From Candidatus Hecatella orcuttiae (lineage in GTDB: Archaea > Thermoproteota > Bathyarchaeia > Hecatellales > Hecatellaceae), in assembly GCA_002011035.2 (NCBI GenBank), contig MTLY02000001.1:471546-535545 (forward strand): 64,000 nt of DNA, read 5' to 3'. Positions 34,595 through 64,000 of this stretch are shown here, piece by piece. The translations under genes and the position numbers were made by a program. The notes beneath the pieces are model-generated. The model saw only the letters and a program-made list of their open reading frames with translations, made no database searches and was not told the origin of the DNA. How positions within the stretch are numbered: position 1 is the first letter of the stretch; each line of letters begins with the position of its first letter.

Positions 34595-36211
34595 TTGAAT
34601 CATGATTTTTGGGCTGTGGAAAAATTGACTCTGACTTCCCAGACGCCGGAAGGTGGATTCTATGCAGGTAGAGCGAAACCGGGAGAAACCGTCATCGAGA
34701 TGAGAGGGATTACCAAGCGTTTTCCCGGCGTAGTCGCCAACGACGACATCGACTTCGACGTCAAGGCTGGCGAGATCCACGCTCTTCTGGGTGAAAACGG
34801 AGCTGGGAAGACAACTCTCATGAACATCATGTACGGTCTTCTCCAGCCTGATGAAGGTGAGATCTACGTTCGCGGCCGGAAGGTGGTTATGCGGTCTCCC
34901 AAAGACGCCATCGCCTTAGGCATAGGGATGGTTCACCAGCACTTCATGCTCGTGGAGCCTCATACCGTAACCGAGAATGTCATCCTAGGCCTCAAATCCC
35001 CCAAAGGCATACTGTTAGACTTGGAAGGAGCTAAGAGGCGGATAGAGGAGCTTTCCAAAAAATACGGCCTCAAGGTTGATCCAGACGCTAAGATCTGGCA
35101 GCTCTCGGTGGGGGAAAGGCAGCGTGTGGAAATAATCAAAGCCCTCTACCGGGGAGCGCAAATCCTCATCCTCGACGAACCCACCGCTGTGCTAACGCCG
35201 CCCGAGGTGAAAGAGCTCATGGCCATCATTCGAAGGATGGCGGAGCAGGGGCACGCTGTGGTTCCGTTCATCACCCACAAGCTGCCGGAGGTAATGGCCA
35301 TAAGCGACCGCGTAACCATTCTCCGCCGCGGAAAAGTTGTAGCGAGAATCCGCACCAAGGACGCGCGAGAAAGCGAACTGGCTAGGCACATGGTGGGAAG
35401 GGAAGTCCTCTTCACCATCGAGAAAAACCCCGCTAAGCCCGGTCGAGTCGTCCTAGAAGTCAGAAACCTGAAAGCCTTGAGCGACAGAGGCCTGCCTGCC
35501 TTGAAGAATGTTTCCTTCTCCATCAGGGAGGGAGAGATCCTCGGCGTGGCTGGGGTGGCTGGGAATGGGCAGCGGGAGCTGGCGGAGGTCATCGCGGGTC
35601 TGCGCCGGGCTGTGGCGGGGAGGGTGCTCATCGACGGAAGGGACGTCACCAACCTCCCCCCAAGGGAGATAATCAAGCAGGGCCTAGGCCACATCCCCGA
35701 AGACAGAATGGGAATGGGCCTCATCCTAGACTTCTCCATAGCCGAGAACGCTATCTTAGAAACCCACAGCAGCCCGCCTTTCGCCCGCGGATGGTTTATC
35801 GACCCCCAAGAGGTCGGTAAACATGCGGAGAGGCTGATCAAGGAGTTCAACATCATGGCCCCGAGCAAAGATACGCTGGCAAACCACCTCTCCGGTGGGA
35901 ACTTGCAGAGGCTTATTTTGGCTCGGGAGCTTTCCAGGGAGCCCAAGGTTTTGGTGGCCAACCAGCCGACTCGGGGGTTGGACGTGGGGGCCACCGAGTT
36001 CATCCGTAGGAAGCTTTTGGAGCAGCGGGACAGGGGCGTGGCCATCCTCCTCATCTCCGAGGACCTGGACGAGGTCATGTCCATGAGCGACCGCATCGCC
36101 GTCCTCTACGAGGGCGAAATCATGGGAATCCTCCCCGCGGAGAAAGCCAAAGTGGAGGAGGTAGGGATGATGATGGCTGGCGCTAGAAGGCAGACTGAGT
36201 TTGAAGCTTGA
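34595..36211 (+). CDS. Nucleoside/sugar (CUT2) ABC transporter ATP-binding protein; true start probably downstream
   Basis: GENGAGKTT, GMVHQHFML, LDEPTAVL, LSGGNLQR and QPTRGLDVGA motifs. Confidence 0.93.
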   Translation: MNHDFWAVEKLTLTSQTPEGGFYAGRAKPGETVIEMRGITKRFPGVVANDDIDFDVKAGEIHALLGENGAGKTTLMNIMYGLLQPDEGEIYVRGRKVVMRSPKDAIALGIGMVHQHFMLVEPHTVTENVILGLKSPKGILLDLEGAKRRIEELSKKYGLKVDPDAKIWQLSVGERQRVEIIKALYRGAQILILDEPTAVLTPPEVKELMAIIRRMAEQGHAVVPFITHKLPEVMAISDRVTILRRGKVVARIRTKDARESELARHMVGREVLFTIEKNPAKPGRVVLEVRNLKALSDRGLPALKNVSFSIREGEILGVAGVAGNGQRELAEVIAGLRRAVAGRVLIDGRDVTNLPPREIIKQGLGHIPEDRMGMGLILDFSIAENAILETHSSPPFARGWFIDPQEVGKHAERLIKEFNIMAPSKDTLANHLSGGNLQRLILARELSREPKVLVANQPTRGLDVGATEFIRRKLLEQRDRGVAILLISEDLDEVMSMSDRIAVLYEGEIMGILPAEKAKVEEVGMMMAGARRQTEFEA

Positions 36212-37305
36212 GAAACCTACGCTGGGCGGTTGAGGAAATGGCGCCTTTAAAATTGAAGATGAGAGAGAAGCCTCCTGCCCCCGCAACCAAGGTTCTGTAC
36301 TTGGTTGCAACGTTGACACCGATGTTTCTGATAGTGGCTGTTATAATTTCTATGGTGGGAGCCAACCCTCTGGTTGCCTACCGGGAGCTTTTCACAGCTC
36401 CTTTCAGAAACATCCACAATGTGACCGAGATTCTTGTGACAACCACCCCTCTGCTGCTCATAGCCCTAGGTTTGAGTGTAAGTTTTAGATGTAAGTTCTG
36501 GAACATCGGCGCGGAGGGGCAGCTGTATGCCGGTGCGCTGGCCTCCACAGCCACGGTGCTTCTTCTGAAAGACAGTGCCACACCTTCAGCGGTTTTCATC
36601 CCTCTGCTCTTAGTGGTTGGTTTTTTAGGCGGAGCCGCTTGGGCGACTATTTCTGCGGTGTTGAAGATTAAATTTCAGATCAACGAGATAATCACAACGC
36701 TTTTGTTGAATTTTATCATGTTTTATTTCCTAAGCTTCCTCCTTTACGGGCCTTGGATGGACCCCATCAGCGTCATGCCCCAATCTGAGCTTTTCCCCCC
36801 AGCGGCGAGACTTCCGAAGTTGATTCCGGAAACGAGGCTGCACACAGGCCTCTTCCTCGCCGTTCTGAGCATCCCTCTGGTTTATCTGATTTTGAACAAG
36901 ACTGTCTTAGGCTATCAGATTAGAACCACAGGCAGCAGTCTGAGCGCAGCCCGTTTCGGAGGGATAAACGTGGGCAAGGTCTTTCTGCTGGTTGTAATAA
37001 TAAGCGGAGGCCTCGCCGGCCTCGCTGGGATGGGTGAAGTTTCAGGCATCTACTACCGTCTGAGGGGGGATATCTCCCCCGGATACGGCTACACAGCCAT
37101 TCTGGTGGCTTTGCTTGGGAAAAACCACCCGGGATGGGTGACCTTGGTGGCGTTTCTTTTCGGCGCCCTCTTGGTGGGAGGATACGAGATGCAGGTTGCC
37201 ACAGGGATACCCACGGCTCTGGCGCTGGTCACTCAGCCTTTAATCTTCTTCGGTGTACTCTGCGCTGAGGCTCTCAGCCGTTATGAAGTCAGTTGGAGAA
37301 AGTGA
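36208..37305 (+). CDS. Nucleoside-type ABC permease
   Basis: WNIGAEGQ, NEII.TLLLN and GYGYTAILVALLG motifs. Confidence 0.92.
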   Translation: MRNLRWAVEEMAPLKLKMREKPPAPATKVLYLVATLTPMFLIVAVIISMVGANPLVAYRELFTAPFRNIHNVTEILVTTTPLLLIALGLSVSFRCKFWNIGAEGQLYAGALASTATVLLLKDSATPSAVFIPLLLVVGFLGGAAWATISAVLKIKFQINEIITTLLLNFIMFYFLSFLLYGPWMDPISVMPQSELFPPAARLPKLIPETRLHTGLFLAVLSIPLVYLILNKTVLGYQIRTTGSSLSAARFGGINVGKVFLLVVIISGGLAGLAGMGEVSGIYYRLRGDISPGYGYTAILVALLGKNHPGWVTLVAFLFGALLVGGYEMQVATGIPTALALVTQPLIFFGVLCAEALSRYEVSWRK

Positions 37306-38234
37306 AAATGTCTCTGGAAGTCTTCCTCACAGGCCTCATAGCCGCTGGCTTCCGCATTGCCACACCCATCTTGTTGGCAGCGCTGGGGGAAACCTTCGCT
37401 GAGCGAAGCGGCATCCTCAACCTTGGAATCGAGGGGATGATGATCATGAGCGCCTTCACTTCCTTCTCCGTCACCTACGATACTGGAAACCCTACGCTGG
37501 GATTGTTGGCGGGCTTAATCACCGGGGGAGTGATGGCTTTCATCCACGCTTTCATGTCCATCACCATCAAAGTCGACCAGATTGTCAGCGGGCTTGCGCT
37601 CACCATTCTCGGGCTGGCTCTCTCCACTTTCCTGTTCATAAGCTACTTCAAACGCACCCAGCCGGCTGTGGAAATCTGGGAACCCACCGCCATCCCTGTT
37701 TTAAGCCAGATCCCCATCATCGGGCCGGCCTTGTTTCAGCAGCACGTAATCACCTACTTCGCCATCATCCTATTCATTGTTTCCACATGGTTCCTCTTCG
37801 GTACTACTTGGGGTTTAACCATCAGAACAGTGGGGGAGAACCCGGCTGCCGCGGACACCGTAGGCATAAGGGTGGAGCGCGTGCGCTATCTATGCACCAT
37901 CTTCGGGGGGCTGATGGCCGGCATAGCCGGGGCCTACCTGACGTTGGTGGTCTTCAACTCCTTCTTCGGCGGAATGACTGCTGGGCGTGGATGGATAGCC
38001 ATAGCCGTGGTGATCTTCGGTCGCTGGACTCCTTCTTGGGTTTTCGGAGGGGCCCTCTTCTTCGGCCTTGTGGATTCCTTTCAGCTGAGACTTCAAGCTT
38101 CAGGGATCCCTATCTCCCCACAATTTTCTCTCATGATCCCTTACCTCTTCACTCTCATAGCCCTCATAATAGTGGGTAGAAAACGTTACGCACCGGCAGC
38201 CTTATGTATTCCCTACAGAAGAGGGGAACGATAA
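37293..38234 (+). CDS. Nucleoside-type ABC permease
   Basis: ERSGILNLGIEG, GENPAAAD, GRGWIAIA and PAALCIPY motifs. Confidence 0.92.
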   Translation: MEKVKMSLEVFLTGLIAAGFRIATPILLAALGETFAERSGILNLGIEGMMIMSAFTSFSVTYDTGNPTLGLLAGLITGGVMAFIHAFMSITIKVDQIVSGLALTILGLALSTFLFISYFKRTQPAVEIWEPTAIPVLSQIPIIGPALFQQHVITYFAIILFIVSTWFLFGTTWGLTIRTVGENPAAADTVGIRVERVRYLCTIFGGLMAGIAGAYLTLVVFNSFFGGMTAGRGWIAIAVVIFGRWTPSWVFGGALFFGLVDSFQLRLQASGIPISPQFSLMIPYLFTLIALIIVGRKRYAPAALCIPYRRGER

Positions 38235-38313
38235 ACCCGGCGGCTTGGCATCGCCTAAGCTGCATTCAGCGGGCATGAAAATATTCAGGTATGCCGTTAC
38301 CCCAGTTAAAAGC

Positions 38314-38328
38314 TTCCACACGTGTGGA
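38314..38328. repeat. Palindrome TCCACACGTGTGGA, copy 1
   Basis: Lies within AGCTTCCACACGTGTGGAGGCT between convergent genes; second copy at 52357. Confidence 0.75.
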
Positions 38329-38391: not shown

Positions 38392-39609
38392 TTATAGGCC
38401 CCAGTGGTCTTCCGGCTGTGTGACGATGGGCTGAATTACCAGTTCCCCGGCGAGGATCCGTTCTTCAAGTACTCTGAGCTCGTCTTTGACTTCCGATGGT
38501 ACGACTTCAGGGAGGTTTATCTTGAACTTCGCTCCCCCTTCAGCCATGCCGGCGTAGTATTCTTTAGCCTCGAATCTGTCCTCCATGACGCTGAGGATTA
38601 TTTCTTCGAAGATCCCGTCGAGGACCCAGTTGGAGCTGGCCAACACCACCTCGGGAGCCCAGTCTATGTCCGGCCTCTCAAACTGCGCTGCGATGAAGTG
38701 TACTCCTTTCTCCGCAGCTCCTGTGGAGGCTCCGGCTGCGTCGGAGAAAATGATGTCGGCTCCTGCTTCGATGAGGGATATGGCAGCCTCCCTTCCCTTG
38801 GGTGGGTCGTACCACGTGAAGATCCATGTTATCTTCACGTCGACGTTGGGGTTGCGCTTTTCACCCCAAGGTATCCCTCCAAAGGCGTCGTAGACTCCTT
38901 GGATGAATCCGTTGAAGTACCTGTTGGCGTTCAGCACAGGATACTGGCCCACGACCCCGATGATGTTGGTCTTAGTCATCTTCCCTGCAAGGTAGCCGCA
39001 CAGGTAGGCGGACTCATGCAGGTAGCTGTCGTAGTGCCCCACATTGGGCGGGATTTTCTCCGGAGGCGGGTAGAGGACATGGAGCTCCGTTCCTCCACCT
39101 GCACCCAACACGACGATGTGGGGATAGTCTCTGGCAATCGCCTTGATGGCGTCAGGATACCAGCTTGTGAACATGATGATGTCGAAGTCTCTCTCCGCGT
39201 AGGACCGCCCCACACGCTCACCTTCCGGAACAGTGACACCTTCTGTAAATTCATAGACGAGACCGTACTTCTCCTTCAGCCTCACCATGGGCTCGTATTG
39301 GGCTAAGTCCCAAGAGTGGGATGTAACCGTCGGCTCAATGTGTATAGCCGCCACCTTCAGCGGCGGTTTCGGCGTCGGAGTCGGTGTAGGCGTAGGAGTC
39401 GGCGTTGGAGTAGGCGTCGGTGTTGGAGTGGGCGTAGGAGTGGGTGTTGGAGTTGGAGTAGGCGTAGGGGTCGGCGTTGGAGTAGGCGTAGGAGCCGGAG
39501 GTCTTGTAGCCTGCCAAGCAGCGTAGCCGCCTACGCCAGCTACCACTGCTGCGACAACCGCGGCGACACCGTATTTGAGGGCGCTTCTCCTAGAAGTCTG
39601 ACCGGCCAA
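38392..39609 (-). CDS. BMP/PnrA-family purine-nucleoside binding protein with Tat-like signal and (PT)20 stalk
   Basis: SRRSALK, TM segment, PT repeat; [15 protein letters not shown] and [17 protein letters not shown] motifs. Confidence 0.88.
39373..39492 (-). repeat. Coding Pro-Thr tandem repeat (20 units, synonymously diverged)
   Basis: CCN-ACN hexamers within the BMP gene. Confidence 0.9.
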
Positions 39610-39797
39610 TTTGACAGAAAACCTCCTTCAAGTAAGGAGGAAGGTTCTCTTCTGCTATTTATCATTTTTGGAGGCCTGAATTTGCTCATCTGCCAGTTTT
39701 CTATAACTGATATCCAAAAAAAAATGGATTGGAAGGTTTCTGAATACCAAAAGATAGATAAAGTCAAGATGAGAAAACTCCGAAGCGGTGAAAAGGA

Positions 39798-41231
39798 ATG
39801 ACTCTGCTCATAGAAGGCGGAATGGTGATCACCAACAACCCAGCCCAGCCTCTTTTGGTAGAAGGCGCTGTGGCGGTGGAGGGAGATAAAATTGTGGCAG
39901 TAGGTAGGGCGGAGGAGGTGAAACGAAATTACACGGCGGAGGAAATTGTAGACGCCCGTGGGAAGCTGGTGATTCCGGGAATGGTGAACGCCCACACTCA
40001 CCTATTTCAGGTGCTCGCCCGCGGACGGTTCGCAGAGGCTACCGCGGCTGTGGCAAGCGCCCCCACCGCGGACAAGGACATGTGGCTGTGGAACATACTG
40101 AAAAAATCCATGTTCCCTACCTCAGCAGTTTTAACGGTGAAAGACTTGGTCGCTGGAACGCATCTCGCCTGCGTTGAAATGGTGAGAAGCGGCATCACCT
40201 GCGTGGTGGACAACCACTACGGGCCCACGGATAAGGCCACAGTGGTGAAGCTGGCCGAGGCCCTGGAGAAATTCGGAATGAGAAGCGTGATCGCCAGAGG
40301 AATAGCCCCCAAGGAAAAACCTCCGCTGGCTGACAAGGTGAGGATTCCCGGGCATGTTTTCAAGTACTCCTCCGAGGAGGAGCTGAGGATTACGGAGGAA
40401 TGCATCTTGGAGGTGAACCGCCAAAGCAGCCTCATCCAAGTCTGGCCGGCGCCCCTTTCTGAAATGTACATATCCCCTGAGTTTTACGCTAAAACCCATG
40501 AGCTTGCGAAGAAATACGATGTGGGCATCCATACGCACATGGTCGAAGGCACCGCTGACCCTAAGCTGTATGTGGAGGAATACGGTAGGAGGCCGGTGGA
40601 GCTGCTTTACGAGCTAGGCGTCCTGTTCCCGAAGTTTCAAATGGCCCACGGCACATGGCTGTCAGATGTCGAGATCGAACTGATAGGGAAAACCGGAGCC
40701 ACCGTGGTGCACAACCCCTTCAGCAACGCCCTAGGTTACAGTCCGGGAGTGGCTCCGATACCTAAGCTCTTGGAGAAAGGAGGCAACGTAGCCCTAGGAA
40801 CCGACGGGGTGTTCGAAAACATGTTCGAAGCCCTCAAGATGGCCATAGGCCTTCAAAGGGTAACCCACCTCGACCCCTTCGCTCTACCAGCGGACAAGGT
40901 TTTCGAGCTGGCAACCTTAGGCGGGGCGAGGGCTTTGGGGCTTGAAAAGCAGCTGGGCTCCCTGGAGCCGGGAAAGAAAGCAGATCTAGTGGTCGTGGAC
41001 GTGAAAAAGCCGTATCTTACTCCTCTTTCCCGGGAGGTAACAGCCTGCGGCCTGCTCTACCACCTGATCCTCTTCGGCACCGGCACGGAGGTTGATACAG
41101 CCGTCATCAACGGAAAGATCGTCTTAGAGGAGGGAGTGATCAAGCCGGTTGACGAGGCTCGCGTGCGGGAGGAGGCTCAAGAGGCAGCCGACGACTTGGC
41201 TCAAAGGTTCACCGAAGCCGATGTGCTGTGA
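39798..41231 (+). CDS. Amidohydrolase, MTA/SAH/purine-deaminase-like (paralog A)
   Basis: PGMVNAHTHLFQ, HTHMVE, MAHG, HNP.SN, LGTDG and GSLEPGKKAD motifs. Confidence 0.88.
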   Translation: MTLLIEGGMVITNNPAQPLLVEGAVAVEGDKIVAVGRAEEVKRNYTAEEIVDARGKLVIPGMVNAHTHLFQVLARGRFAEATAAVASAPTADKDMWLWNILKKSMFPTSAVLTVKDLVAGTHLACVEMVRSGITCVVDNHYGPTDKATVVKLAEALEKFGMRSVIARGIAPKEKPPLADKVRIPGHVFKYSSEEELRITEECILEVNRQSSLIQVWPAPLSEMYISPEFYAKTHELAKKYDVGIHTHMVEGTADPKLYVEEYGRRPVELLYELGVLFPKFQMAHGTWLSDVEIELIGKTGATVVHNPFSNALGYSPGVAPIPKLLEKGGNVALGTDGVFENMFEALKMAIGLQRVTHLDPFALPADKVFELATLGGARALGLEKQLGSLEPGKKADLVVVDVKKPYLTPLSREVTACGLLYHLILFGTGTEVDTAVINGKIVLEEGVIKPVDEARVREEAQEAADDLAQRFTEADVL

Positions 41232-41252: not shown

Positions 41253-42638
41253 TCAAGCCTGTAAGGGTACGCCTAGGTCTGCCAGCTGCCTTTTCACTTC
41301 CCTGTAGAGGCTCAGCCACTCCTCCGTTGGCTTAAGCGTCTTCAGGTTGTAACATTCCATGAAGGTCTTACCTAAAGGCGGGTTTCTCAGCTTCTCCTCG
41401 TATCTTGGGAGAATGGCCTTCACTACGTCATTAGCCTCGGTGCGCTTCATCCCCGCGCATGATTTGGAGACCTCCGCTGCGAACTTCTGCTCCAAAGGAG
41501 TGATGTGATCCACATGCTTCCCGCCCGCTGAACGGTTGCCGCATTGAACCGCGCAGCCCGAGGCGACCTGCTCCAAGGCGCCCGCCGCCATCTCGTAGAG
41601 AACCTCGCGAGTGCATGGGCCTGAAACCTGACTGGTCACACCTCCTATAAGAAGATGAGTGTTCCTGCTCACAGCCTGCTCCGCCACGCTGGCCGCCCAG
41701 AGGGCGTCCCGGCCTACGTTTCCCCCATACCTGACGTCGTAGATCACCCCGGAGATGAGAGCGCACCTGTGAACTAGAAGCTGAAGTAGCACAGCTGCCA
41801 CCGCCGCCAGAGCTGCCCCCTCAGGGGGGCCCACGTAGCCTCCTATCATGGACCAGTGGCCGCCGTAGATGTAGCTTCCGTTACCTTGAATCCTCACAAC
41901 CTTGTGGAGCAAGCCGTAGGAGGTTTTTAACTCCGTGACGGCGAGGGCGAGCCCCATGTCGCTTCGCGCGTAACCGTGGAGGGCACCGTAGCCGCCTAAG
42001 AGGCCGTACTCTGTGGGGCTGAGGGCGACTCCTATGATCGGCGCGCCTAGCCTGCCGGCTCTTCTGAGGGCTTCCTTCACCTTGGCTGCCTCGTTTATTC
42101 CGGCTAGGCTTTCATAGGGTGAACCCGCTAGGATAGGCCGCCCGTGGAGGGTGGAAGTTGTCAAGGGGGTCACCAGGTCGATGATTTTTAACGACGCCAT
42201 GGCTTGCATCAGCTCCATGTAATGCTCCTCTGAAACCACTCCGAACCCGGACCTGAAGAGGGGAGGCTGAGGGTCTTCAGGCTTCCTAGCCTTGACCACC
42301 AATTTCTCCGTGCCTTCCCCGATGGTTATTTCGCTGGGGGCTTGGTAGCGTATTGCCTCCTTCAACTCTTCTTCGGTGAACTTGATCGTTCTCTCCGTGT
42401 CCAAGCAGAGCATGCCTGTGTCCGCGGCGAATTCGAAGCCGGCTTTCCAGAATTCGTCTGCGAGGGTGTCGTCAGTGTTTACGGAGTTCGCGGGGTCGCA
42501 TGTCTTAGTCAGGCCGTGCTCCCTAAGCTTTTCCTTGACATGGGTGGGTATGATGTGCTTGTCCCATTTTTCAACTTCGCAGACAGGGCCCGAGTGCGCC
42601 CGGTCTAAGACTTCTAGAAAACTCACCACGCAGACCAC
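41253..42638 (-). CDS. mtmB: MtmB-family corrinoid methyltransferase, pyrrolysine-free (copy 1)
   Basis: DRAHSGP, LADEF..AG, AGR.G, ELK, IGGY.G..EG and SGPCT motifs; Ile at the Pyl position; no in-frame TAG. Confidence 0.85.
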   Translation of the reverse strand: MVCVVSFLEVLDRAHSGPVCEVEKWDKHIIPTHVKEKLREHGLTKTCDPANSVNTDDTLADEFWKAGFEFAADTGMLCLDTERTIKFTEEELKEAIRYQAPSEITIGEGTEKLVVKARKPEDPQPPLFRSGFGVVSEEHYMELMQAMASLKIIDLVTPLTTSTLHGRPILAGSPYESLAGINEAAKVKEALRRAGRLGAPIIGVALSPTEYGLLGGYGALHGYARSDMGLALAVTELKTSYGLLHKVVRIQGNGSYIYGGHWSMIGGYVGPPEGAALAAVAAVLLQLLVHRCALISGVIYDVRYGGNVGRDALWAASVAEQAVSRNTHLLIGGVTSQVSGPCTREVLYEMAAGALEQVASGCAVQCGNRSAGGKHVDHITPLEQKFAAEVSKSCAGMKRTEANDVVKAILPRYEEKLRNPPLGKTFMECYNLKTLKPTEEWLSLYREVKRQLADLGVPLQA

Positions 42639-48185: not shown

Positions 48186-48188
48186 AGC

Positions 48189-53811: not shown

Positions 53812-53917
53812 GTTTCTCTACGCCTCACCAGTCAGCGGAGTGAAAATCCTATTTAGCCTCATATTATTCATGCTTTCCTAGAAAATATTAAAAGCCGATT
53901 GCCCATAAATTTTCCTT

Positions 53918-54946: not shown

Positions 54947-55032
54947 TTTTTTTGATCTGAAGAGCCTGTTCTTCTTTTTAGGTCCGCTGAGGGCCCTCTA
55001 ACTTTAAATAAAACGAAAAAGCTAAAACCGGT

Positions 55033-55782
55033 ATGAATGTCGCTGTAGAATCCCAGCGATTTATTTCTAACTTGTGGAAAGATATAGAGATCCCTGTGGA
55101 TAAGATTAAACCCAGCAAGTTCAGTTTGAGGGACGTAGACGGGTCGACTGTCAAAGAGTTGGCTGAATCCATCAAGGCCAACGGACTGCTTCAACCCATC
55201 ATGGTTAGGCCTTCGCCCAACGGCTACGAGCTTGTCTTCGGCCTTCACAGACTTGAAGCCTGCAAACAGTTGGGCTGGGAGAAAATCCCCGCAGTGCTCA
55301 AGGATGTGCCTGATGACGAAGTCTTATTGATGAGCATCGTTGAAAATCTTCAACGTAACATTCACGTAAACCCCATCGCTGAAGCCCGCAGCTATAAGTT
55401 TCTGATGACCAAAGGGTGGACTGTCCCTGAGATTTCGGCGAAAATAGGTAAAACAGACAAATACGTCTACGAAAGGTTAAGATTACTGTACAAGCTGCAT
55501 CCGAAAATCCGGAAAGAACTGGACAAGCGAGTTCACCCATCGCCTCTGACCCCCTCCCATCTGGAACGCCTTGCCCTCATCGACGATCCTCAACTTCAAC
55601 TGAAGCTGGCTAGGCTGGTTCAGAAGAAGCGTTTATCCGTACGGCAGCTTGAGCGTTTAACGCGGAAACTCAAAAGGATAATGCCCGCGGGATGCCTCTG
55701 CAAAAAATGCTCCAACTACCCTTGCAAATACATTCCTGGAGAAGACGATAAGGACTTGATGTATAAACACGCCTTCGGCTGA
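55033..55782 (+). CDS. ParB/Spo0J-family protein with C-terminal Cys cluster; no parA in the window
   Basis: LAESIK.NGLLQPIMVR, FGLHRLEA, ENLQR, HTH, LSVRQLE and CLCKKCSNYPC. Confidence 0.88.
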   Translation: MNVAVESQRFISNLWKDIEIPVDKIKPSKFSLRDVDGSTVKELAESIKANGLLQPIMVRPSPNGYELVFGLHRLEACKQLGWEKIPAVLKDVPDDEVLLMSIVENLQRNIHVNPIAEARSYKFLMTKGWTVPEISAKIGKTDKYVYERLRLLYKLHPKIRKELDKRVHPSPLTPSHLERLALIDDPQLQLKLARLVQKKRLSVRQLERLTRKLKRIMPAGCLCKKCSNYPCKYIPGEDDKDLMYKHAFG

Positions 55783-55815
55783 GTAGACGGTTATCCATAA
55801 GTTTCAGAGTTCCGA

Positions 55816-57024: not shown

Positions 57025-58352
57025 CAGCTCTCACCTCGAAGGTAGGCTGCAATCGCCCTTGCAGCCTTTTTCCCGTCACCCACAGCGCGCACCACGGTGT
57101 TGTCGTAGCTGACTAGGTCTCCGCCTGCGAACACGCCTTTTCGACTTGTCATCATGTTATCGTCTACTTTCACCTTGCCATAACGGTCTAATTCAATCCC
57201 GTTGCGGACATAGAATTCTGGTGAAAGTTTCGACCCGAGAGCGAGAACCAAACAATCGAATTCCGTGTGGTAGGTTGCCCCTTCCACTGGAACAGGTTTC
57301 CTCCTTCCAGACTCGTCAGCTTCCTCCAACCTCATAACTTGGCATTTCGCTCGGTAGTTTCCTTTTCCAGTGGGGAGGAATTCCACCACGGTTGTGAGCA
57401 GTTTAAAATTAACACCTTCAGCCATCGCAGCTTCAACCATCCTCCGCTCCGCAGGCATCTCAGCGAAGGTTCTCCGATAGATCACCGTGCACTCTCCACC
57501 GAGTCTGACAGCAGTTCGGGCAACGTCGAAAGCAACGTCACCGCCGCCTACCACACCCACTTTTTTACTCTTCAGAAACCCAAGTGCACCCTCATCTGCC
57601 ATGCGCAGAAACTGACTTGCGCTGAAAACACCTTCCAGGGGGCCTTGGAGAGGATATTCTATGTCAACATCTAAGCCGCATCCTAAGAACACAGCATCAA
57701 ACTCACCTTCCAACGCAGCCAAGTCAACAACCTCTGAGCCGTATCGGAGGTCTATCCCGCTTTTGACTGCAAAGTCTACTTCACTTTTAACGATTTCTCG
57801 GGGAGCGCGGAAGGGGGGAATACCCCAAGATGGAATACCGCCAGCCTTTTTCTGTTTCTCGAAAACCGTAACTCTATAACCCATCTTCCTGAGTTCGAAG
57901 GCGCAAGCCAAACCCGCCGGCCCAGCTCCCACCACGGCGACTTTCTGAGGGTGTTCTTCGGGAACGGTGACTTCTTTTTTCCAGTTTTTCTCTTCCCAGT
58001 CGGCGGCGAAACGTTGGAGGGAGTGAATGTTTATGGCACTGTCTATTTTCTTTCTGGTGCATTCTCCTTCGCACAGCCTGTCCACAGGGCATACTCGGGC
58101 GCATAGGCCTCCGAACAAGTTTTCCTCTTTTATCTTCTGCGCCGCCCCAGCGAAGTCTCGCTCCTTTATCCGCCGGATGAAAACAGGAATATCGATGTTC
58201 GCGGGGCAGTTCTTTCGGCAGGGCGGCTCATAACATTGGAAACACCGGGAGGCTTCCTGTAAGGCGGCATCAATGGACATTGCCGGTTCGACCTCATGAA
58301 AGTAACTCTCATCCGGCTTGTTCTCAAGCTTCGGGGATATTTTCTTCCCCAC
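57024..58352 (-). CDS. preT: PreT/GltD-like FAD/Fe-S NAD(P)H subunit
   Basis: EASRCFQC..PPC..NCP, CARVCP...LCEGEC, GAGPAGL and GVFAGGD motifs; coupled to preA. Confidence 0.88.
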   Translation of the reverse strand: MGKKISPKLENKPDESYFHEVEPAMSIDAALQEASRCFQCYEPPCRKNCPANIDIPVFIRRIKERDFAGAAQKIKEENLFGGLCARVCPVDRLCEGECTRKKIDSAINIHSLQRFAADWEEKNWKKEVTVPEEHPQKVAVVGAGPAGLACAFELRKMGYRVTVFEKQKKAGGIPSWGIPPFRAPREIVKSEVDFAVKSGIDLRYGSEVVDLAALEGEFDAVFLGCGLDVDIEYPLQGPLEGVFSASQFLRMADEGALGFLKSKKVGVVGGGDVAFDVARTAVRLGGECTVIYRRTFAEMPAERRMVEAAMAEGVNFKLLTTVVEFLPTGKGNYRAKCQVMRLEEADESGRRKPVPVEGATYHTEFDCLVLALGSKLSPEFYVRNGIELDRYGKVKVDDNMMTSRKGVFAGGDLVSYDNTVVRAVGDGKKAARAIAAYLRGES

Positions 58353-58450
58353 TCCATCTTCCCCCTTCCAGCATGGATGTTTGGTTCATGGAATAAATTT
58401 CCCCCTGTATTATTTAATCTCTAGGAGCGGAGGGTTGAAGCCTCCGGAAA

Positions 58451-59719
58451 TCACTGCTCTGCATTCAATATTTTTCTCTTAAACTCCTCGATGTCAGGTT
58501 TGATGGTGGGCACTTCGCCTTCCATTTTCATCGTAGCCTCAGGGTCTTTCAGCCCACTCCCTGTGATGAGCGCCACCACAGTTTCATCCTTTTCTATGAC
58601 GCCTTTCTCCGCAAGTTTAATCAGCCCAGCCAGCGAGGCTACTCCGGAAGGTTCAGCGAAGACTCCTTCTAGGGAGGCTAGAAGTTTCTGAGCCTTGAGT
58701 ATATCCTCATCCGGAACTTCCTCCGCCGTGCCTGACTTCTTCAGAACATTCAACGCCACATCCGCATCCCATGGGAAAACATCCGCCAACCCTCCAGCTA
58801 CGGTGCGGGGGTTCTTCCATGGTTCAAGCTCCCGGAGCGATTTTTTCTCCCTGAAAGCCTTCACCAAAGGAGCGCAGCCTGTGGACTGAATGGCGGCCAG
58901 TTTCGGCATGAAGTCGATGAAACCTATCTCTTTAAAGTCTCTAAACCCCTTCCAGACTCCTGCAAAAAGGCAGGCTGAGCCTACGGGGATTATTATCCAG
59001 TCAGGCAGCTTCCAGCCTAACTGCTCAGCTATCTCGTAGGATATGGTCTTCGGCCCCTCAACTTGGTATGGGTTGAAAGGCCCGAAGCTGGGGCAGGGAT
59101 ACCATCCGTACTCCTCAATAACCTTCTGGAGCATTTGGACGGTAGGGTCCTTTCCCTCCTCCGCAGGCTTTACCTTCACCACCCGGGTTCCGTGGAGGCG
59201 GATCTGGGCGATTTTGGCCGTGGAGGCGGACTCTAAAACGAAGGCGAAACATTTCAACCCTGCTTTAGCCGAATACGCAGCCAAGGAAGCCGCCGCGTTT
59301 CCACTGGAGGCTGTTGCCACGGTTCTGACTCCGAACTCCACAGCCTTGGATACGCCCACCGTCATCGAGCGGTCTTTAAAAGACCCTGTGGGGTTTCTTG
59401 TTTCATCCTTCAGGTAAAGGTTTCTCAAACCGATTTTTTCACCGAGGCTCTCCGCCTTCAAAAGCGGACTGCCTCCCTCGTTCAAGGTAACGGCGTTCTT
59501 TTCGCTTTTGAGGGGGAGAAATTCGAAATATTTCCATAGAAAGGGAGCCCGCTCGGCTAGGTTCTTTTTGCTCACTTTTTCAGCGATGGCGGAGTAGTCG
59601 TAGTCTAGGTCAAGGCGGCCGCCGTCTTTTTTCAGGCACATGTAAACCTTTTCATCTGGAGAGTAATCTCTCCCGCAGGCAGAGCATCTCATTCTGGTAA
59701 CGAAGGCCATCTGTTTCAC
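58451..59719 (-). CDS. thrC: Threonine-synthase-like fold-II PLP enzyme
   Basis: NPTGSFKDR, ASSGNAAASLA, EGPKT, EG.FAEP and TGSGLKD motifs. Confidence 0.8.
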   Translation of the reverse strand: MKQMAFVTRMRCSACGRDYSPDEKVYMCLKKDGGRLDLDYDYSAIAEKVSKKNLAERAPFLWKYFEFLPLKSEKNAVTLNEGGSPLLKAESLGEKIGLRNLYLKDETRNPTGSFKDRSMTVGVSKAVEFGVRTVATASSGNAAASLAAYSAKAGLKCFAFVLESASTAKIAQIRLHGTRVVKVKPAEEGKDPTVQMLQKVIEEYGWYPCPSFGPFNPYQVEGPKTISYEIAEQLGWKLPDWIIIPVGSACLFAGVWKGFRDFKEIGFIDFMPKLAAIQSTGCAPLVKAFREKKSLRELEPWKNPRTVAGGLADVFPWDADVALNVLKKSGTAEEVPDEDILKAQKLLASLEGVFAEPSGVASLAGLIKLAEKGVIEKDETVVALITGSGLKDPEATMKMEGEVPTIKPDIEEFKRKILNAEQ

Positions 59720-59800
59720 ATCTTCAACCTGAGTTGACGTTGAGGGTTAAAAAATAGGAAACACTCTTAAATCTTAACCCGACACTTGCCTTTCCCGGGT

Positions 59801-61195
59801 TTACAGCGGCTTCAACGGGACTCCAAAATCAACGAGTTCTTTTTTCACCTTGTCGTAGATTTCCCGCCACTCCTTTGTAGGCTTCAAAGTCTTGAGGTCA
59901 AAGCATTCGGTGAAACTCTTTCCATCGGGCGGAGCGGCCAGTTTGGCTTCATATCGAGGGATGAAGACTTTTGCGATCTCGTTGGCTTCCCCCAGCTTCA
60001 TGCCCGCGGAGCCTTTGAGCACCTCTCCGCAGAATTTGCACTCTAAGGGACTCACGTAATTGGTGAGCCTTCCTCCAGCTGAACGGGGACCGACGGCGTA
60101 GCTAGCTCCGGAGGCGGAGATGCATATCATGCTCACCGCCGACTCGTAGAGAAGCATCTCAGTGCAAGGGCCTGCCACTTGATTAGGCCCCGACATGACT
60201 AGGATGTGAGTGTTCCGTGAAAGAGCCTGGCAGCCGATGCTGGTCGTCCAGATGCCCTCCCGGCCGCAGTTACCCGAGTATCTGATGTCCATGCATCCCA
60301 CGTAGCCTGTTAGGCTTCGGTGGACCAGCAAATTCAACAAGGCGCAAGCGATGGACGCTACAGCGGCACCTTCCGCCCCGCCCGCATAGCCCCCGATCAT
60401 GGACCACGTTCCCGCGTGAATGATTCCTCCGCAGTTGAGGGTGTGAACCACCTTATGCATGGCGTGGTAGGTGGTTTTAAGCTCAGGAGGGAAGAGAATT
60501 AAAGCCAAGTTCCCCGGCCTGTAGCCACCTGGGATACCGTATCCTCCAAGCTGTCCGTAGGCTGTGGGGCTGGTTATGACCGCCTGAAACCCTATTCCCG
60601 GCCTGCCGGCTCTCCAAACAGCTTCCTGGTGCATCTGTGCCTGAAGCCGGGCTGCCAGCGTTTCGAAGGGCGTCCCTGCCAGCACACGCTTGCCGAACAC
60701 CGTTTCAAGAGAAGGCCCTTCGATGATGTCCACTTCCCTATGTTGCGCTATTCCTTGGGTTAGGGGGATGAACAGTTCCTCGGAAACCGTTATGCCGAAG
60801 GGTGCGCACCAAACCGGAGGATAACCGTCTCCGGGCTGCCTGCTCTTCATAACCACCCTGTCTAAGCCTTCGCCCAACACGGCTTCTTTCGGCGCTGTTC
60901 TGACGGCTTCCCGCAGCTCCTCCTCGTCTACTTTTATCACTCTCTCAGTGTCTTGGCATAGCATTCCCGCGTCTACCGCTAAGTCGAATCCTGCCCGCCA
61001 AAACGAATCAGCCAAGCCGCCGTCGGTGTTGACGAGGTTGGCGGGGTCGTAGACTTTTTGGATGCCGTAGGCTCTCAGTTTTTCCGCTATCTTAGCCGGT
61101 ATGACTTTAAAGTTCCAGTCCTTAACGGTGCAGAACGGTCCGTTGTGGGCGCGGTCGAGGATTGGTAAGTAAATATGAGACATGAGTTTCCTCAC
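59801..61195 (-). CDS. mtmB: MtmB-family corrinoid methyltransferase, pyrrolysine-free (copy 2)
   Basis: DRAHNGP, AGRPGIGFQAV (Gln at the Pyl site), IGGYAGGAEG and AGPCTEMLLYE. Confidence 0.87.
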   Translation of the reverse strand: MRKLMSHIYLPILDRAHNGPFCTVKDWNFKVIPAKIAEKLRAYGIQKVYDPANLVNTDGGLADSFWRAGFDLAVDAGMLCQDTERVIKVDEEELREAVRTAPKEAVLGEGLDRVVMKSRQPGDGYPPVWCAPFGITVSEELFIPLTQGIAQHREVDIIEGPSLETVFGKRVLAGTPFETLAARLQAQMHQEAVWRAGRPGIGFQAVITSPTAYGQLGGYGIPGGYRPGNLALILFPPELKTTYHAMHKVVHTLNCGGIIHAGTWSMIGGYAGGAEGAAVASIACALLNLLVHRSLTGYVGCMDIRYSGNCGREGIWTTSIGCQALSRNTHILVMSGPNQVAGPCTEMLLYESAVSMICISASGASYAVGPRSAGGRLTNYVSPLECKFCGEVLKGSAGMKLGEANEIAKVFIPRYEAKLAAPPDGKSFTECFDLKTLKPTKEWREIYDKVKKELVDFGVPLKPL

Positions 61196-61205
61196 ACGGA
61201 GTTAT

Positions 61206-62594
61206 TCACTCTACAGGGATTCCGAGGTCTATGATTTCCCTCTTTACCTTGTCGTAGATTTCCCGCCACTCCTTTGTAGGCTTCAAAGTCTTGAGGTCAA
61301 AGCATTCGGTGAACTTTTTCCCCAGGGGGGGGTGGAACAATCTATTTTCATATTTTGGGAGGAGGGCCTTAGCAATGTCGTTAGCGGTCTTACGTTTCAT
61401 CCCCGCGCAGGACTTGAAAACTTCAGCGCAAAACTTAGCCTCCAGCGGGCTGATGTAGTTGGAGTACTTACCCCCCGCCGACCGCGGGCCTATGGCCATG
61501 CTGGCGCTGGAGACGGAGATACTCATCATGCCCACCGCCGACTCGTAGAGAAGCATCTCAGTGCAAGGGCCTGCCACCTGGTTGATAATAGCCTCAGTCA
61601 GAAGGTGAGTGTTTCGACCTAAAGCTTGAAAAACAACGCTGTTAGCCCAAAGGGCTTCTCTTCCGCAGTTGCCAAAGTACCGGAGGTCATAGGCTCCGCA
61701 GCCGCCGTAAACAGCCTGATGAACAGGCCTCTCTAGGATGAAGATGGCTATGGCCGAGATGATGGAGCCTTCCGGGGAGCCGGAGTACCCTCCGATCATG
61801 GACCACGAACCGGTCCTGATGATTCCCCCGCAGTTGATGGCGTGGACCACCTTATGCAGACATGAATAGGATGTCTTCAACTCCGAGGGGAAGAGCACTA
61901 TAGCCACATCGGTAGGCTTGTATCCTCCGACCACACCGTATCCTCCGAACTGCCCGTACTCGGTGGGGCTGGTGATCACGGCTCCCGCAGCCATCCCCGG
62001 CCTGCCGGCTCTCCGAATTACTTCTTGGTGCATCTTGGCTTGCAGGTAGCCCGCCAGTGTCTCGTAGGGAGTTCGAGAAATAATCGGCCTGCCGTACACG
62101 GTTTCCAAGGTAGGCCCCTCCAGCATGTCTATCACCCTGTACTGCGCCACGCCCAGCATGAGGGGAACCCAAAGGTCTTCGGAGATGCCTATTCCCAACG
62201 TGGAGGCGTAGATGGGGACCTTCTCGTCTTCCGGCTTCCGGGCTCTCATGGTGAACCTATCCAAGCCCTCTCCCAAGGTGAGCTCGCTGGGGGAGTCCTT
62301 GAGGGCTTCCTTCAGCTCCTCTTCGGTGAACCTCACTACCCTGCCTGTGTCCGAGCACAGCATTCCCGTTTCAACAGCGAATTCGAAGCCTGCTCTGTAA
62401 AAATCATCCGCAAGACCGTCGTCGCAGTTGATGGGGTTATCCTTATCAAAGGTTTTGCTGAGCCCATGTTCTTTGAGCTTCTGGAGAACTCCTTCGCCTA
62501 TGACTTTGATATCCCAATCTCTCTCCGTGCAAACAGGGCCTGTGCACGTGCGGTCTAAGACTTCCAGAATACCGGGCGGAATCGACATGGACAT
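61206..62594 (-). CDS. mtmB: MtmB-family corrinoid methyltransferase, pyrrolysine-free (copy 3)
   Basis: LADDFYRAG, AGRPGMAAGAV (Gly at the Pyl site) and AGPCTEMLLYE. Confidence 0.87.
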   Translation of the reverse strand: MSMSIPPGILEVLDRTCTGPVCTERDWDIKVIGEGVLQKLKEHGLSKTFDKDNPINCDDGLADDFYRAGFEFAVETGMLCSDTGRVVRFTEEELKEALKDSPSELTLGEGLDRFTMRARKPEDEKVPIYASTLGIGISEDLWVPLMLGVAQYRVIDMLEGPTLETVYGRPIISRTPYETLAGYLQAKMHQEVIRRAGRPGMAAGAVITSPTEYGQFGGYGVVGGYKPTDVAIVLFPSELKTSYSCLHKVVHAINCGGIIRTGSWSMIGGYSGSPEGSIISAIAIFILERPVHQAVYGGCGAYDLRYFGNCGREALWANSVVFQALGRNTHLLTEAIINQVAGPCTEMLLYESAVGMMSISVSSASMAIGPRSAGGKYSNYISPLEAKFCAEVFKSCAGMKRKTANDIAKALLPKYENRLFHPPLGKKFTECFDLKTLKPTKEWREIYDKVKREIIDLGIPVE

Positions 62595-62704
62595 AGACTA
62601 TCGCCCATACAAGTTATTCTTTATCGACTTGAAGGGGATCGCTGTCGTGTTTGTTTAAAAAGTTTATGGCAACTGATGACCAGCTGGTTAATGCTGCATC
62701 CCGG

Positions 62705-63760
62705 CTACTCGATGATTTCCCATCGGCTCTGATACTTGTCAAGCTCACGCACCGTGTAGGGGTCCATGGGATGTTCCCGCTCCGGGATCTCTACCTCTTT
62801 CATTTCCCCGCAGAGTTTGGTTGAAAAATATCTCAGCCCGTTGTCGTTGATCATGGTAACAATTCTTTTAAATTCAGGGTGGCGGTCTGCAACCTTAAGC
62901 GCCGCGGCTATGTTGCATCCGGAGGAAATTCCGCAGAACAGACCTTCCTCAACTGCTAACCTCTTCGCCATCTCTATGGCCTCCTCGGAAGTGGTAGTTA
63001 CAACCCCATTCAGCAAGCTGAGGTCCAAGTTGCGGGGGACAAAGCCGTCGCCGATGCCTTCTATCTCATGGGAGCCCCACCGTCGCTTCGACAGCAGCGG
63101 AGCCTCCGTGGGCTCCACAGCATACAAGGCTACGTGAGGGTTTTTCTCCCTCAGAAACCTGCCAACCCCTGTCAGTGTTCCCCCGGTTCCTTGGGATGCG
63201 ACGAAACAGTCCACTCGGCCTCCTGTTTGCTCCCATATCTCCGGGCCCGTCGTCTTATAGTGGCTGTTGGCGTTGTCAGGGTTGCTGAACTGCTCCGGCA
63301 CCCAGTATTTTCCAGGGTGCTCTTTTTTCAATTCGCTTATTTTTTCTAGGCACAGGTCCACGTCGCTTTCAGCTCCGGGCGTGTGAATTATGTTTGCTCC
63401 ATAGGAGCGGATGATCTTCATTCGCTCCTGGCTCATTCCCTCAGGCATGACGATAGTGACCTTATAGCCTAGCATCCCTCCCACAAAGGCGCAGGAGATG
63501 CCTGCGTTCCCCGTTGAGGCTTCGAGGATTTCCATCCCCGGCTTCAGCTCGCCGGATTCGATGGCCTTGGTGATCATTTCATAGTAGATTCTGTCCTTTA
63601 GACTGCCGGTTGGGTTGAAGAATTCCAGTTTAACCAAGATTTCGTTTCCCCCTTTTGGACGGATGCGATTCAGCTTGTACATGGGCGTCATGCCGATGAG
63701 CTGAAATATGCTGTCAGCCGCACTTTTTCTAGCCTCCCAAGGAATTTTTCTTTCCGTCAA
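62705..63760 (-). CDS. Cysteine-synthase-family fold-II PLP enzyme
   Basis: KLEFFNPTGSLKDR, EASTGNAG, QFSNPDN, GTGGT, IEGIG and GISSG motifs. Confidence 0.85.
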   Translation of the reverse strand: MTERKIPWEARKSAADSIFQLIGMTPMYKLNRIRPKGGNEILVKLEFFNPTGSLKDRIYYEMITKAIESGELKPGMEILEASTGNAGISCAFVGGMLGYKVTIVMPEGMSQERMKIIRSYGANIIHTPGAESDVDLCLEKISELKKEHPGKYWVPEQFSNPDNANSHYKTTGPEIWEQTGGRVDCFVASQGTGGTLTGVGRFLREKNPHVALYAVEPTEAPLLSKRRWGSHEIEGIGDGFVPRNLDLSLLNGVVTTTSEEAIEMAKRLAVEEGLFCGISSGCNIAAALKVADRHPEFKRIVTMINDNGLRYFSTKLCGEMKEVEIPEREHPMDPYTVRELDKYQSRWEIIE

Positions 63761-63862
63761 CCTTCATCCCGCCTTAGCTAAGAGTTTTAATTCGCATACG
63801 GACAGCTATAAACCTTCACATAGAAAGAATTTAAAATAAACCATCCTCGACAGCTCTATTTT

Positions 63863-63876
63863 GAAAAAGCTTAAAT
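63863..63876 (+). promoter_or_regulatory. Putative BRE/TATA promoter of the Xdh-like gene
   Basis: GAAAAAGCTTAAAT about 35 nt before ATG 63911. Confidence 0.4.
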
Positions 63877-63910
63877 CCCCATCAACTCAGTTCTTTAATG
63901 TGAAAAAATT

Positions 63911-64000
63911 ATGGCTGAATTCTCTTACGTCAACAAGAGTGTTGTTCGGTTTGATGGTTTGGAGAAGGCTACGGGTCGGGCTGTTTTTGTGGGGGATTTG
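63911..64000 (+). CDS. Start of a xanthine-dehydrogenase-family molybdopterin subunit (runs off the window end)
   Basis: MAEFSYVNKSVVRFDGLEKATGRAVFVGDL resembles the KSV.R.D..EK.TG.A.F..DL N-terminus of XdhA/CoxL proteins; only 30 codons visible. Confidence 0.65.
   Translation, partial: MAEFSYVNKSVVRFDGLEKATGRAVFVGDL

Follow-up and report, generated by a model that had tools for sequence, protein, structure and literature searches.

A composite gene island in a bathyarchaeon that may link corrinoid-dependent N-demethylation to reductive breakdown of N-heterocycles

The final 64 kb of contig C1 of Candidatus Hecatella orcuttiae (the window: the whole 64,000-nucleotide stretch that was analysed) closes with a ~30 kb gene cluster, beginning at position 34,595, in which two gene modules are interleaved at the level of operons. 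One is a methyl-transfer module (module M) of three pyrrolysine (Pyl)-free MtmB homologs, a corrinoid protein (CoP) and a methylcobamide methyltransferase (MT2); the other is a ring-degradation module with a purine-base-type BMP importer (module R), by its gene content an archaeal version of the anaerobic pathway for reductive degradation of urate (2,8-dioxopurine). We read the region as a composite catabolic island in which M would demethylate N-methylated nucleobases or close heteroaromatic analogues, the ring then entering R; this reading, drawn from gene content and gene order, has in our judgement an even chance of being right. Both the separate and the joint conservation of the two modules are observed in other genomes. 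Gene identities were assigned from a listing of open reading frames (ORFs) together with Pfam and NCBIfam models (NCBIfam cut-offs are given per gene), and the importer, ring-degradation and methyl-transfer genes that the original prediction, made from the letters alone, had placed here were all found where it had put them.

A complete corrinoid methyltransferase set without pyrrolysine

MtmB1 (41253-42638), MtmB2 (59801-61195) and MtmB3 (61206-62594), all on the minus strand, are full-length matches to the Pfam MtmB model (PF05369, model positions 3-450; 288, 306 and 282 bits, respectively), and are the candidate MT1 components. Pyl-dependent MtmB enzymes carry an in-frame UAG for pyrrolysine at the active site; MtmB1-3 have no in-frame stop, and their residues at the Pyl column, located by alignment to the TAG-containing MtmB of the host, are I, Q and G, respectively. 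The window copies thus share the full-length fold family and the three-component logic of the Pyl-dependent MtmB/MtmC/MtbA system of M. barkeri (1L2Q/1NTH), but differ from it at the Pyl column and are only ~30% identical to the Pyl enzyme (MtmB1 scores 200 bits against 1L2Q). The set is completed by CoP (45370-46071, minus strand; Pfam B12-binding_2 and B12-binding; 203.1 vs. a cut-off of 215.3 for TIGR02370) and by a URO-D/MtaA-CmuA-like MT2 (44240-45301, minus strand; Pfam URO-D, 185.7 bits), which stays below the NCBIfam MtaA/CmuA models (139.9 vs. a cut-off of 244). Corrinoid proteins have a DxHxxG motif, and CoP carries it as DIHDIG. The original prediction correctly saw no RamA activase in the window; the single RamA match of the genome (C1:466200-466970, 344.5 bits) lies ~4.6 kb before the window start.

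The nearest characterised counterpart is MtqB of Methanococcoides methylutens Q3c, a Pyl-free MtmB homolog reported in 2026 that uses tetramethylammonium and choline and shows a small methylamine activity (PMC13044021); the substrates of Pyl-free MtmB proteins, which the original prediction called unknown, are therefore no longer wholly so. As in MtqB/MtqC/MtqA, the window has a Pyl-free MtmB-family MT1, an adjacent cognate CoP and a URO-D-type MT2, and attack of Co(I) on an N-methyl group is presumed in both. Unlike the MtqB system, the window belongs to a non-methanogen (McrA was not found in the genome) and has a purine-binder-type BMP importer and ring-degradation neighbours. A Met and a Cys close to the ligand are conserved in the MtqB clade (PMC13044021). 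Pyl-free MtmB and MttB proteins use cationic N-methyl donors (MtqB: PMC13044021), and ring-N-methylated bases are likewise cationic, which by analogy would make the proposed chemistry reasonable. In the Formimonas proteome paper, dichloromethane induces another Pyl-free protein of the MtmB superfamily; this has no bearing on the substrate of the clade discussed below, and the Zinke and Pyl-code preprints have none either.

Module R as an archaeal form of the reductive urate pathway

In the main texts that describe the bacterial reductive urate pathway (PMC12507026; bioRxiv 2025.04.24.650524), XdhD, YgfK or UacX, SsnA, HyuA, YgeW and YqeA act in sequence, and YgeW and YqeA make ATP. Measured against these texts, the ring-degradation set does mirror that pathway, as the original prediction proposed: Xdh-family, PreTA, SsnA-like, hydantoinase, carbamoyltransferase (CTase) and carbamate kinase genes are clustered in the window. 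The D-hydantoinase/dihydropyrimidinase (52408-53811, minus strand; TIGR02033, 476 bits, cut-off 393) corresponds to HyuA, and the carbamate kinase (53918-54946, plus strand; TIGR00746, 360.2 bits, cut-off 358.25), present in one copy in the host genome (tblastn), to YqeA. The PreA-like FMN/Fe-S ring reductase subunit (55816-57024, minus strand; NF006183, 470 bits, cut-off 335) and the PreT/GltD-like FAD/Fe-S subunit (57024-58352, minus strand; Pfam Fer4_20 and Pyr_redox_2) form a split analogue of YgfK/UacX: PreT matches the middle of YgfK (TIGR03315, 295 bits, model positions 433-836), and PreA has a DHO_dh plus Fer4 architecture like that of UacX as given in the main text of PMC12507026. The SsnA-like ring-opening amidohydrolase (48592-49971, minus strand) scores 408 bits against TIGR03314 (cut-off 455.5). 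CTase1 (50235-51278, plus strand; Pfam OTCace_N and OTCace) is of the N-acetylornithine carbamoyltransferase (AOTCase) type (NF003384, 313 bits, cut-off 288; closest structure AOTCase 3KZC, 254 bits, with YgeW 3Q98 at 168 bits), and CTase2 (51292-52320, plus strand), of the ornithine carbamoyltransferase (OTCase) fold, is 40% identical to it. The Xdh-family molybdenum subunit named in the original prediction is present, but in the window it amounts to the first 30 codons (63911-64000, plus strand), cut by the contig end; the host has five full-length Xdh large subunits whose N-termini match these codons at 43-48% identity, and the end of contig C3 matches them at 83% (tblastn). We rejected the idea that the Xdh call was a misread aldehyde:ferredoxin oxidoreductase (AOR) gene, a real Xdh N-terminus being found at this position.

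Module R departs from the bacterial pathway in its archaeal host, in having two AOTCase-like CTases, and in two fold-II pyridoxal phosphate (PLP) enzymes, one ThrC-like (threonine-synthase-like; 58451-59719, minus strand; NF006050, 344 bits, cut-off 303) and one CysK-like (cysteine-synthase-like; 62705-63760, minus strand; TIGR01139, 359.8 bits, cut-off 350.95), in place of YgeX. It departs from it further in the inserted corrinoid methyl-transfer genes and in a conserved tungsten-type AOR with its ferredoxin. The AOR (46242-48185, minus strand), of the tungstopterin family, has both AFOR_N (278 bits) and AFOR_C (455 bits) domains, scores 512 bits against 9MQX and 473 bits against 1AOR, and adjoins a poly-[4Fe-4S] ferredoxin (48189-48632, minus strand; Pfam Fer4 families), as expected of this family. 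Neither "archaea" nor "tungsten" occurs in the main texts of PMC12507026 and bioRxiv 2025.04.24.650524, and "methylated", "methylxanthine" and "aldehyde" are absent from the main text of PMC12507026.

The gene set also resembles the reductive pyrimidine pathway (PreTA/PydA), in that PreA exceeds its equivalog cut-off and the hydantoinase exceeds the dihydropyrimidinase model; the window differs from it in having no beta-ureidopropionase, for which CTase and carbamate kinase would substitute. Among the 12 papers listed by our literature search, of 195 that matched, neither the titles nor the starts of the abstracts pointed to an ATP-yielding pyrimidine route.

Two COG0402 (deaminase/chlorohydrolase-type) amidohydrolases, AH1 (39798-41231, plus strand; Pfam Amidohydro_1, 179 bits; HxH motif) and AH2 (42741-44168, plus strand; 71% identical to AH1), also belong to the ring-degradation set. 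AH1 is under the cut-off of every NCBIfam model, and its closest structures are AtzA (4V1X) and 8-oxoguanine deaminase. It is conceivable that AH1 and AH2 cleave exocyclic N-methylamino groups (of N6-methyladenine, N2-methylguanine or N4-methylcytosine) and release methylamine for the MtmB homologs or for Pyl-MtmB: the best models and structures for both proteins are alkylamino- and chloro-triazine hydrolases and deaminases, the Pyl cassette of the host looks complete and includes a TAG-containing MtmB, and the small methylamine activity of MtqB points the same way. Yet MtmB1-3 lack the pyrrolysine that is treated as required for methylamine activation (PMC13044021), Pyl-MtmB is ~150 kb distant, and seven diverged paralogs would be superfluous for one product; we regard this route as quite unlikely.

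Operon-level interleaving of the two modules

The SsnA-like, ferredoxin, AOR, CoP and MT2 genes share one direction, with gaps of -41, 3, 170 and 68 nt; so do the CysK-like, MtmB3, MtmB2, ThrC-like, PreT and PreA genes, with gaps of 110, 10, 81, 98 and -1 nt; and AH1 and AH2 flank MtmB1. The CysK-like and ThrC-like genes, adjacent to each other in related cassettes, are thereby separated by MtmB3 and MtmB2. In the window, the R operons seem to have received the M genes by insertion, because the closest R cassettes in metagenomes (CTase1 74-79% identical) contain neither MtmB nor CoP. These cassettes run CTase1-CysK-SsnA-amidohydrolase-ferredoxin-AOR on one strand, followed by BMP-type permeases; others of the closest loci run CTase1-CTase2-carbamate kinase...ThrC, or CTase1-CysK beside ThrC, and SsnA-like orthologs at 76-79% identity are located in CTase1-CysK-SsnA cassettes.

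Mixing of M and R recurs in a second cluster of the host and in at least four other metagenome-assembled genomes (MAGs). Host cluster A (C1:1-26300) holds Xdh, two BMP-type ABC sets, AH, MtmB, CoP, AH, PreA-like, SsnA-like, hydantoinase-like, ferredoxin and AOR genes. A "Candidatus Hadarchaeum" MAG (L190) has MtmB-CoP-CTase-amidohydrolase-AOR-PreA-like on a single strand; one "Hadarchaeota" MAG (L191) has MtmB-AH-adenine deaminase-CoP-Xdh-aminotransferase-CTase-CTase-PreA, and another (L192) has MT2-CoP-Xdh adjoining CTase-CTase-SsnA-PreA-BMP; a Bathyarchaeia MAG (L022) has a mixed array of M and R genes. CTase1-like genes were found in all five named MAGs tested, at 54-58% identity. Cluster A also has an arginase-family (ureohydrolase) gene (C1:22840-23850) between its hydantoinase-like and ferredoxin-AOR genes.

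The arrangement in the window is not an assembly chimera, because contigs from two independent public runs (X4 and X5) bridge the cluster junctions with 0 differences: one X4 contig covers 44001-49316 (MT2-CoP-AOR-ferredoxin-SsnA), and X5 contigs cover 46187-56050 (AOR to PreA) and 59280-59914 (ThrC-like/MtmB2).

A clade of Pyl-free MtmB proteins beside BMP importers

A scan of a genome collection with an alignment of the seven closest MtmB paralogs gave 79 loci, which by record titles come from Hadarchaeota, Bathyarchaeia, Methanomethylicia, Caldarchaeales, Chloroflexota, Spirochaetia, Bacillota and others. In a tree of 98 rows, built by a quick method after rows shorter than 400 aa had been excluded, MtmB1-3 belong to a 66-row clade of archaea and bacteria (SH-aLRT 99). 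BMP-type ABC genes lie within 8 kb of 36 of the 66 clade rows vs. 6 of the 32 rows outside the clade, and for a further 13 of the 66 (counted by eye) the neighbours of interest are limited to AH, adenine deaminase or Xdh; these clade counts are lower bounds, since many contigs are short, and related rows are not independent. Counted by locus, the BMP-type ABC genes accompany 27 of 50 loci whose MtmB is at least 40% identical, vs. 6 of 30 below 40%. Xdh large subunits are found within 8 kb of 11 of the 64 clade MtmB ORFs and adenine deaminase near 3 of the 64. By Pfam, further recurrent neighbours of MtmB are all three Xdh subunits, adenine deaminase, RamA (RamA-family ORFs in 15 loci), MtaB, UbiD and class-III aminotransferase.

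The binding protein of the window fits planar heterocycles as cargo. The importer consists of an ATPase with two ABC_tran domains (34595-36211, plus strand; 185 bits, 2 stretches), two BPD_transp_2 permeases (36208-37305, plus strand, 126.9 bits, overlapping the ATPase gene by 4 nt; and 37293-38234, plus strand, 131.9 bits) and a BMP-family protein (38392-39609, minus strand; Pfam Bmp, 87.2 bits). The last had been taken for part of a nucleoside-type importer, but its best solved relatives are purine-base binders: AtzT (6PI5, 95.8 bits), solved as a guanine complex and with affinities of 110 nM for guanine and 2.5 uM for adenine, and 3S99 (64.4 bits), whose structure was modelled with adenine. 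The aromatic sandwich and the equivalent of Ser97 of AtzT are conserved, whereas Glu165, Asn218 and Asn220 of AtzT align with Asn, Asp and Ala (numbering offset derived from the AtzT paper); since the polar contacts are changed, plain guanine is not expected as ligand. The stacking aromatics are conserved in 33 of 33 BMP proteins that neighbour MtmB, and the polar contacts differ among paralogs, which fits an importer family for varied planar heterocycles. Nucleosides are less likely substrates than free bases.

The changed polar contacts are also compatible with other N-methyl heteroaromatics, such as trigonelline, homarine or N-methylnicotinamide, whose pyridine ring would, after demethylation, be degraded by the Xdh-type hydroxylase, the reductase, an enamidase-like amidohydrolase and the AOR. 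Anaerobic nicotinate fermentation employs an Xdh-type hydroxylase, a ferredoxin-dependent reductase and an enamidase, and yields an aldehyde such as 2-formylglutarate; the AOR is without an obvious aldehyde substrate in purine breakdown, and Xdh, amidohydrolase and AOR-ferredoxin genes recur beside MtmB and CoP. The public runs that contain cluster DNA are labelled as marine and subsurface metagenomes, with no RNA run among those listed, and PMC10805028 names trigonelline as a possible aromatic methylamine substrate. We nevertheless consider N-methylpyridines unlikely substrates: the SsnA-like enzyme, the hydantoinase, the CTases and the carbamate kinase require ureido groups, which pyridines do not have; the adenine deaminase neighbours suggest purines; and the closest solved BMP relatives are purine binders.

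Module R on its own and the case against coupling

A metagenome scan with CTase1 as query gave 80 loci, in which families were counted by ORF clustering. ThrC-like genes accompany CTase1 in 36 of the 80, carbamate kinase in 28, CysK-like genes in 23, the SsnA/AH family in 22, an ABC ATPase in 16, hydantoinase-like genes in 12, AOR and ferredoxin in 7 each and PreA in 6; MtmB, CoP and MT2 occur in none (0/80). Module R is thus conserved as a separate module. A lack of conserved linkage, which would have refuted the original prediction, is not what we see: across archaeal and bacterial phyla, clade MtmB and CoP genes are repeatedly found with BMP importers, Xdh, adenine deaminase and amidohydrolases of the COG0402 type, and they lie inside ring-degradation operons twice in the host and again in other MAGs. 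The prediction is not supported, on the other hand, by the 80 CTase1 loci, all of which have R without M genes. From the M side, no CTase or carbamate kinase gene was seen closer than 10 kb to MtmB at any of the 79 genome loci. Because of these two results, we conclude that the coupling of M and R is an add-on of some lineages, not a fixed system.

Both results weigh against our reading of the island, and several further observations do the same. Hydantoinase-like genes are near MtmB in just 3 of the 79 loci, and the amidohydrolases that adjoin MtmB elsewhere reach just 25-41% identity to AH1/AH2, which makes them members of the same family but not necessarily orthologs. The loci with mixed clusters are not independent, and genomes may have swapped them as blocks. 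CTase1 orthologs above 44% identity are absent from 60 relatives of the host, and the MtmB clade was found, with the query used, in 0 of 13 genomes of the host's own family. Aliphatic quaternary amines are the substrates of the one Pyl-free MtmB that has been characterised (PMC13044021). Within the window, the SsnA-like protein falls slightly under its NCBIfam equivalog cut-off (429.7 vs. 444 bits). The CTases, called YgeW-like in the original prediction, do have the OTCase fold, but they score higher on N-acetylornithine and ornithine carbamoyltransferase models (N-acetylornithine carbamoyltransferase being the best) than on the YgeW models, where they reach 196 and 141 bits vs. a cut-off of 453, and are not YgeW by curated model; the fold is shared and the role plausibly the same. 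Orthologs of YgeY and YgeX are absent from the cluster: the window contains no M20 peptidase, and its two PALP proteins match threonine synthase and cysteine synthase models instead. Finally, one joint at a contig end in run X5 omits 45318-46186, which contains the CoP gene, and hints at a strain variant without it; the 20 letters that back this joint are too few to interpret.

It is possible, if rather unlikely, that M and R are unrelated and only packed together, R degrading unmethylated purines or pyrimidines and the MtmB homologs demethylating quaternary or secondary amines on an island assembled by gene transfer. The lack of M genes at all 80 metagenome R loci, the tetramethylammonium and choline activity of MtqB, the fact that more distant MtmB clades adjoin other ABC types (18 of 37 ORFs), and the absence or divergence of both modules in relatives of the host would all agree with such a view. 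The operon-level mixing, seen twice in the host genome and again in L190, L191, L192 and L022, speaks against it, as do the purine-binder-type BMP importers, the Xdh large subunits and the adenine deaminase genes near clade MtmB.

MtmB1 matches are found in 6 of the 60 relatives that were scanned for CTase1, at no more than 39% identity, and the best MtmB matches of the window are "Hadarchaeota" proteins, at 57-61% identity; because the host family has no close orthologs and the top MtmB matches lie in "Hadarchaeota", the data suggest that M and R were acquired by gene transfer, recently. The ribosomal protein L3 of the host is 51-54% identical to those of Bathyarchaeia and Hadarchaeota MAGs alike.

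Proposed route and its implications

We infer the substrates, the methyl acceptor, the role of the AOR and the order of the steps from these gene identities and arrangements. In the composite island as we read it, the BMP-type importer would bring in a planar N-heteroaromatic base, the COG0402 aminohydrolases would deaminate it, the Xdh-family enzyme would adjust its oxidation state and PreTA would reduce the ring. The SsnA-like enzyme and the hydantoinase would then open the two rings; both ureido groups may be phosphorolysed by the two CTases, with ATP formed by carbamate kinase, and the ThrC-like and CysK-like PLP enzymes would handle a C3 amino acid. The tungsten-type AOR and its ferredoxin would keep the electron balance, either by providing low-potential electrons for reduction of the ring through oxidation of an aldehyde intermediate, or by acting on the heterocycle itself. 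For methylated bases, the three Pyl-free MtmB MT1 proteins, with one CoP, one MT2 and RamA from elsewhere in the genome, would strip the N-methyl group, which would pass to a one-carbon carrier and on to the Wood-Ljungdahl pathway, and the demethylated ring would go through R to ATP, pyruvate and ammonia.

The same enzyme classes are compatible on paper with catabolism of creatinine or N-methylhydantoin, substrates that the original prediction had also put forward: a deaminase would give N-methylhydantoin, the hydantoinase would open it, CTase and carbamate kinase would yield ATP and sarcosine, and MtmB would demethylate sarcosine. We found no specific support for them and consider them highly improbable, as Xdh, PreTA, the SsnA-like enzyme and the adenine deaminase neighbours would be left without a role, the BMP protein is of purine type, and the loci come, by titles and run labels, from MAGs of hot springs, the subsurface and the sea, settings in which creatinine would hardly be a staple.

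Extending the demethylation reading from the window to its relatives, we tentatively suggest, at less than even likelihood, that the 66-row clade consists of N-methyl-nucleobase:corrinoid methyltransferases, acting on 7-methylguanine, 1-methyladenine, 3-methylcytosine and the like from decaying RNA and DNA. Anaerobes such as the host would then draw part of their living from the methyl groups of modified nucleic acids, sending these to the Wood-Ljungdahl pathway and fermenting the demethylated rings to ATP by an archaeal reductive purine pathway that includes a tungsten AOR. Pyl-free MtmB homologs are numerous, their default label in databases is methylamine methyltransferase, and a substrate has been demonstrated for just one (PMC13044021); gene context now points to a concrete substrate class for this clade, together with a cognate importer, CoP and MT2. 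If the proposal is right, anaerobic methylotrophy would gain modified nucleobases as substrates, and the recycling of necromass would be tied to one-carbon metabolism in subsurface archaea. The R cassette, for its part, brings into archaea a pathway of reductive purine breakdown that was reported in 2025 and hitherto from bacteria, in a form that may yield a second ATP per ring and that recruits a tungsten enzyme. Our literature searches, which covered papers outside their supplements, found no publication that ties corrinoid methyltransferases to methylated purines; members of the clade or the cassette may already figure in the MtmB tree and accession lists that supplement PMC13044021 and in the SsnA network that supplements PMC12507026.

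Host genome, assembly and further observations

The host genome (1.75 Mb, 3 contigs, 97% complete) carries the Wood-Ljungdahl markers CdhC and Mch (tetrahydromethanopterin type), and no match to McrA was found in it. Since CdhC, Mch and RamA are present and McrA was not found, the host has the genes to use methyl groups without making methane. With 12 MtmB-family hits, 8 hits to the Xdh molybdenum domain, 6 BMP proteins and ~10 COG0402 amidohydrolases, it looks like a non-methanogenic methylotroph heavily invested in N-heterocycle catabolism. Its Pyl cassette (C1:349861-356234) comprises tRNA-Pyl, four ORFs, MtmB and a corrinoid protein, with tRNA-Pyl and the TAG-containing MtmB adjoining. TAG is an ordinary stop codon in the host too: it closes 278 of the 1054 long frames, 5 of the 23 genes of the cluster end with it, and the idea that TAG is read as Pyl throughout the genome was rejected. 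At C3:408373-409440 there is part of a dimethylamine methyltransferase (Dimeth_PyL, 353 of 463 model positions), which probably runs on through a TAG.

Contigs C1 and C3 both end within the first 30 codons of Xdh paralogs that are 83% identical, and C1 and C2 both start inside Xdh 3' parts that are 78% identical over 1.35 kb. We therefore take the assembly to break at repeated Xdh genes; the cluster goes on past the window, possibly reaching cluster A, with which C1 begins. A second joint in run X5, from 52342 to 63935 on opposite strands, is inversion-like and likewise hints at a strain variant, but is backed by 31 letters, too few to interpret.

Upstream of 34.6 kb the window holds housekeeping genes, among them PGI, ribosomal protein L3, adenylosuccinate lyase and an RNase Z-like protein, and Rfam gave no match in the whole window at gathering thresholds. 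A small ORF (orf161, 39316-39801) that overlaps the start of the BMP gene and has no family match was treated as spurious. Within the cluster, a ParB-like protein (55033-55782, plus strand; Pfam ParB_N and HTH_ParB), which like the AOR and its ferredoxin was not listed in the original prediction, is a possible regulator; it also matches weakly (31 bits) the model of the archaeal ADP-dependent serine kinase SerK, and could be either a regulator or a kinase feeding the PLP enzymes.

The small-subunit (SSU) rRNA of the host is archaeal, and its match (C2:464353-466521) covers 2169 nt vs. 1478 positions of the model; the gene holds an insertion of ~690 nt that is probably an intron. There is another, partial SSU match at C3:4-640.

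Among the MtmB loci of other genomes, an array of CoP, MtmB homolog, MtaB and BMP-type ABC genes is common to seven loci (L035, L037-L040, L056 and L057) from Methanomethylicia, Aigarchaeota/Caldarchaeales, Nitrososphaeria and "Terraquivivens" MAGs; six of these loci have RamA upstream of the array, and no RamA-family ORF was found in L035. UbiD-family decarboxylase genes stand beside clade MtmB as six ORFs in L013, L018, L029, L032 and L036, and as tblastn matches in L193 and L195. Two "Candidatus Hadarchaeota" MAGs (G061 and G062; 1.8 and 1.4 Mb) have ~40 and ~30 MtmB-family matches, respectively, with one TAG-containing copy each, an extreme expansion of Pyl-free MtmB genes.

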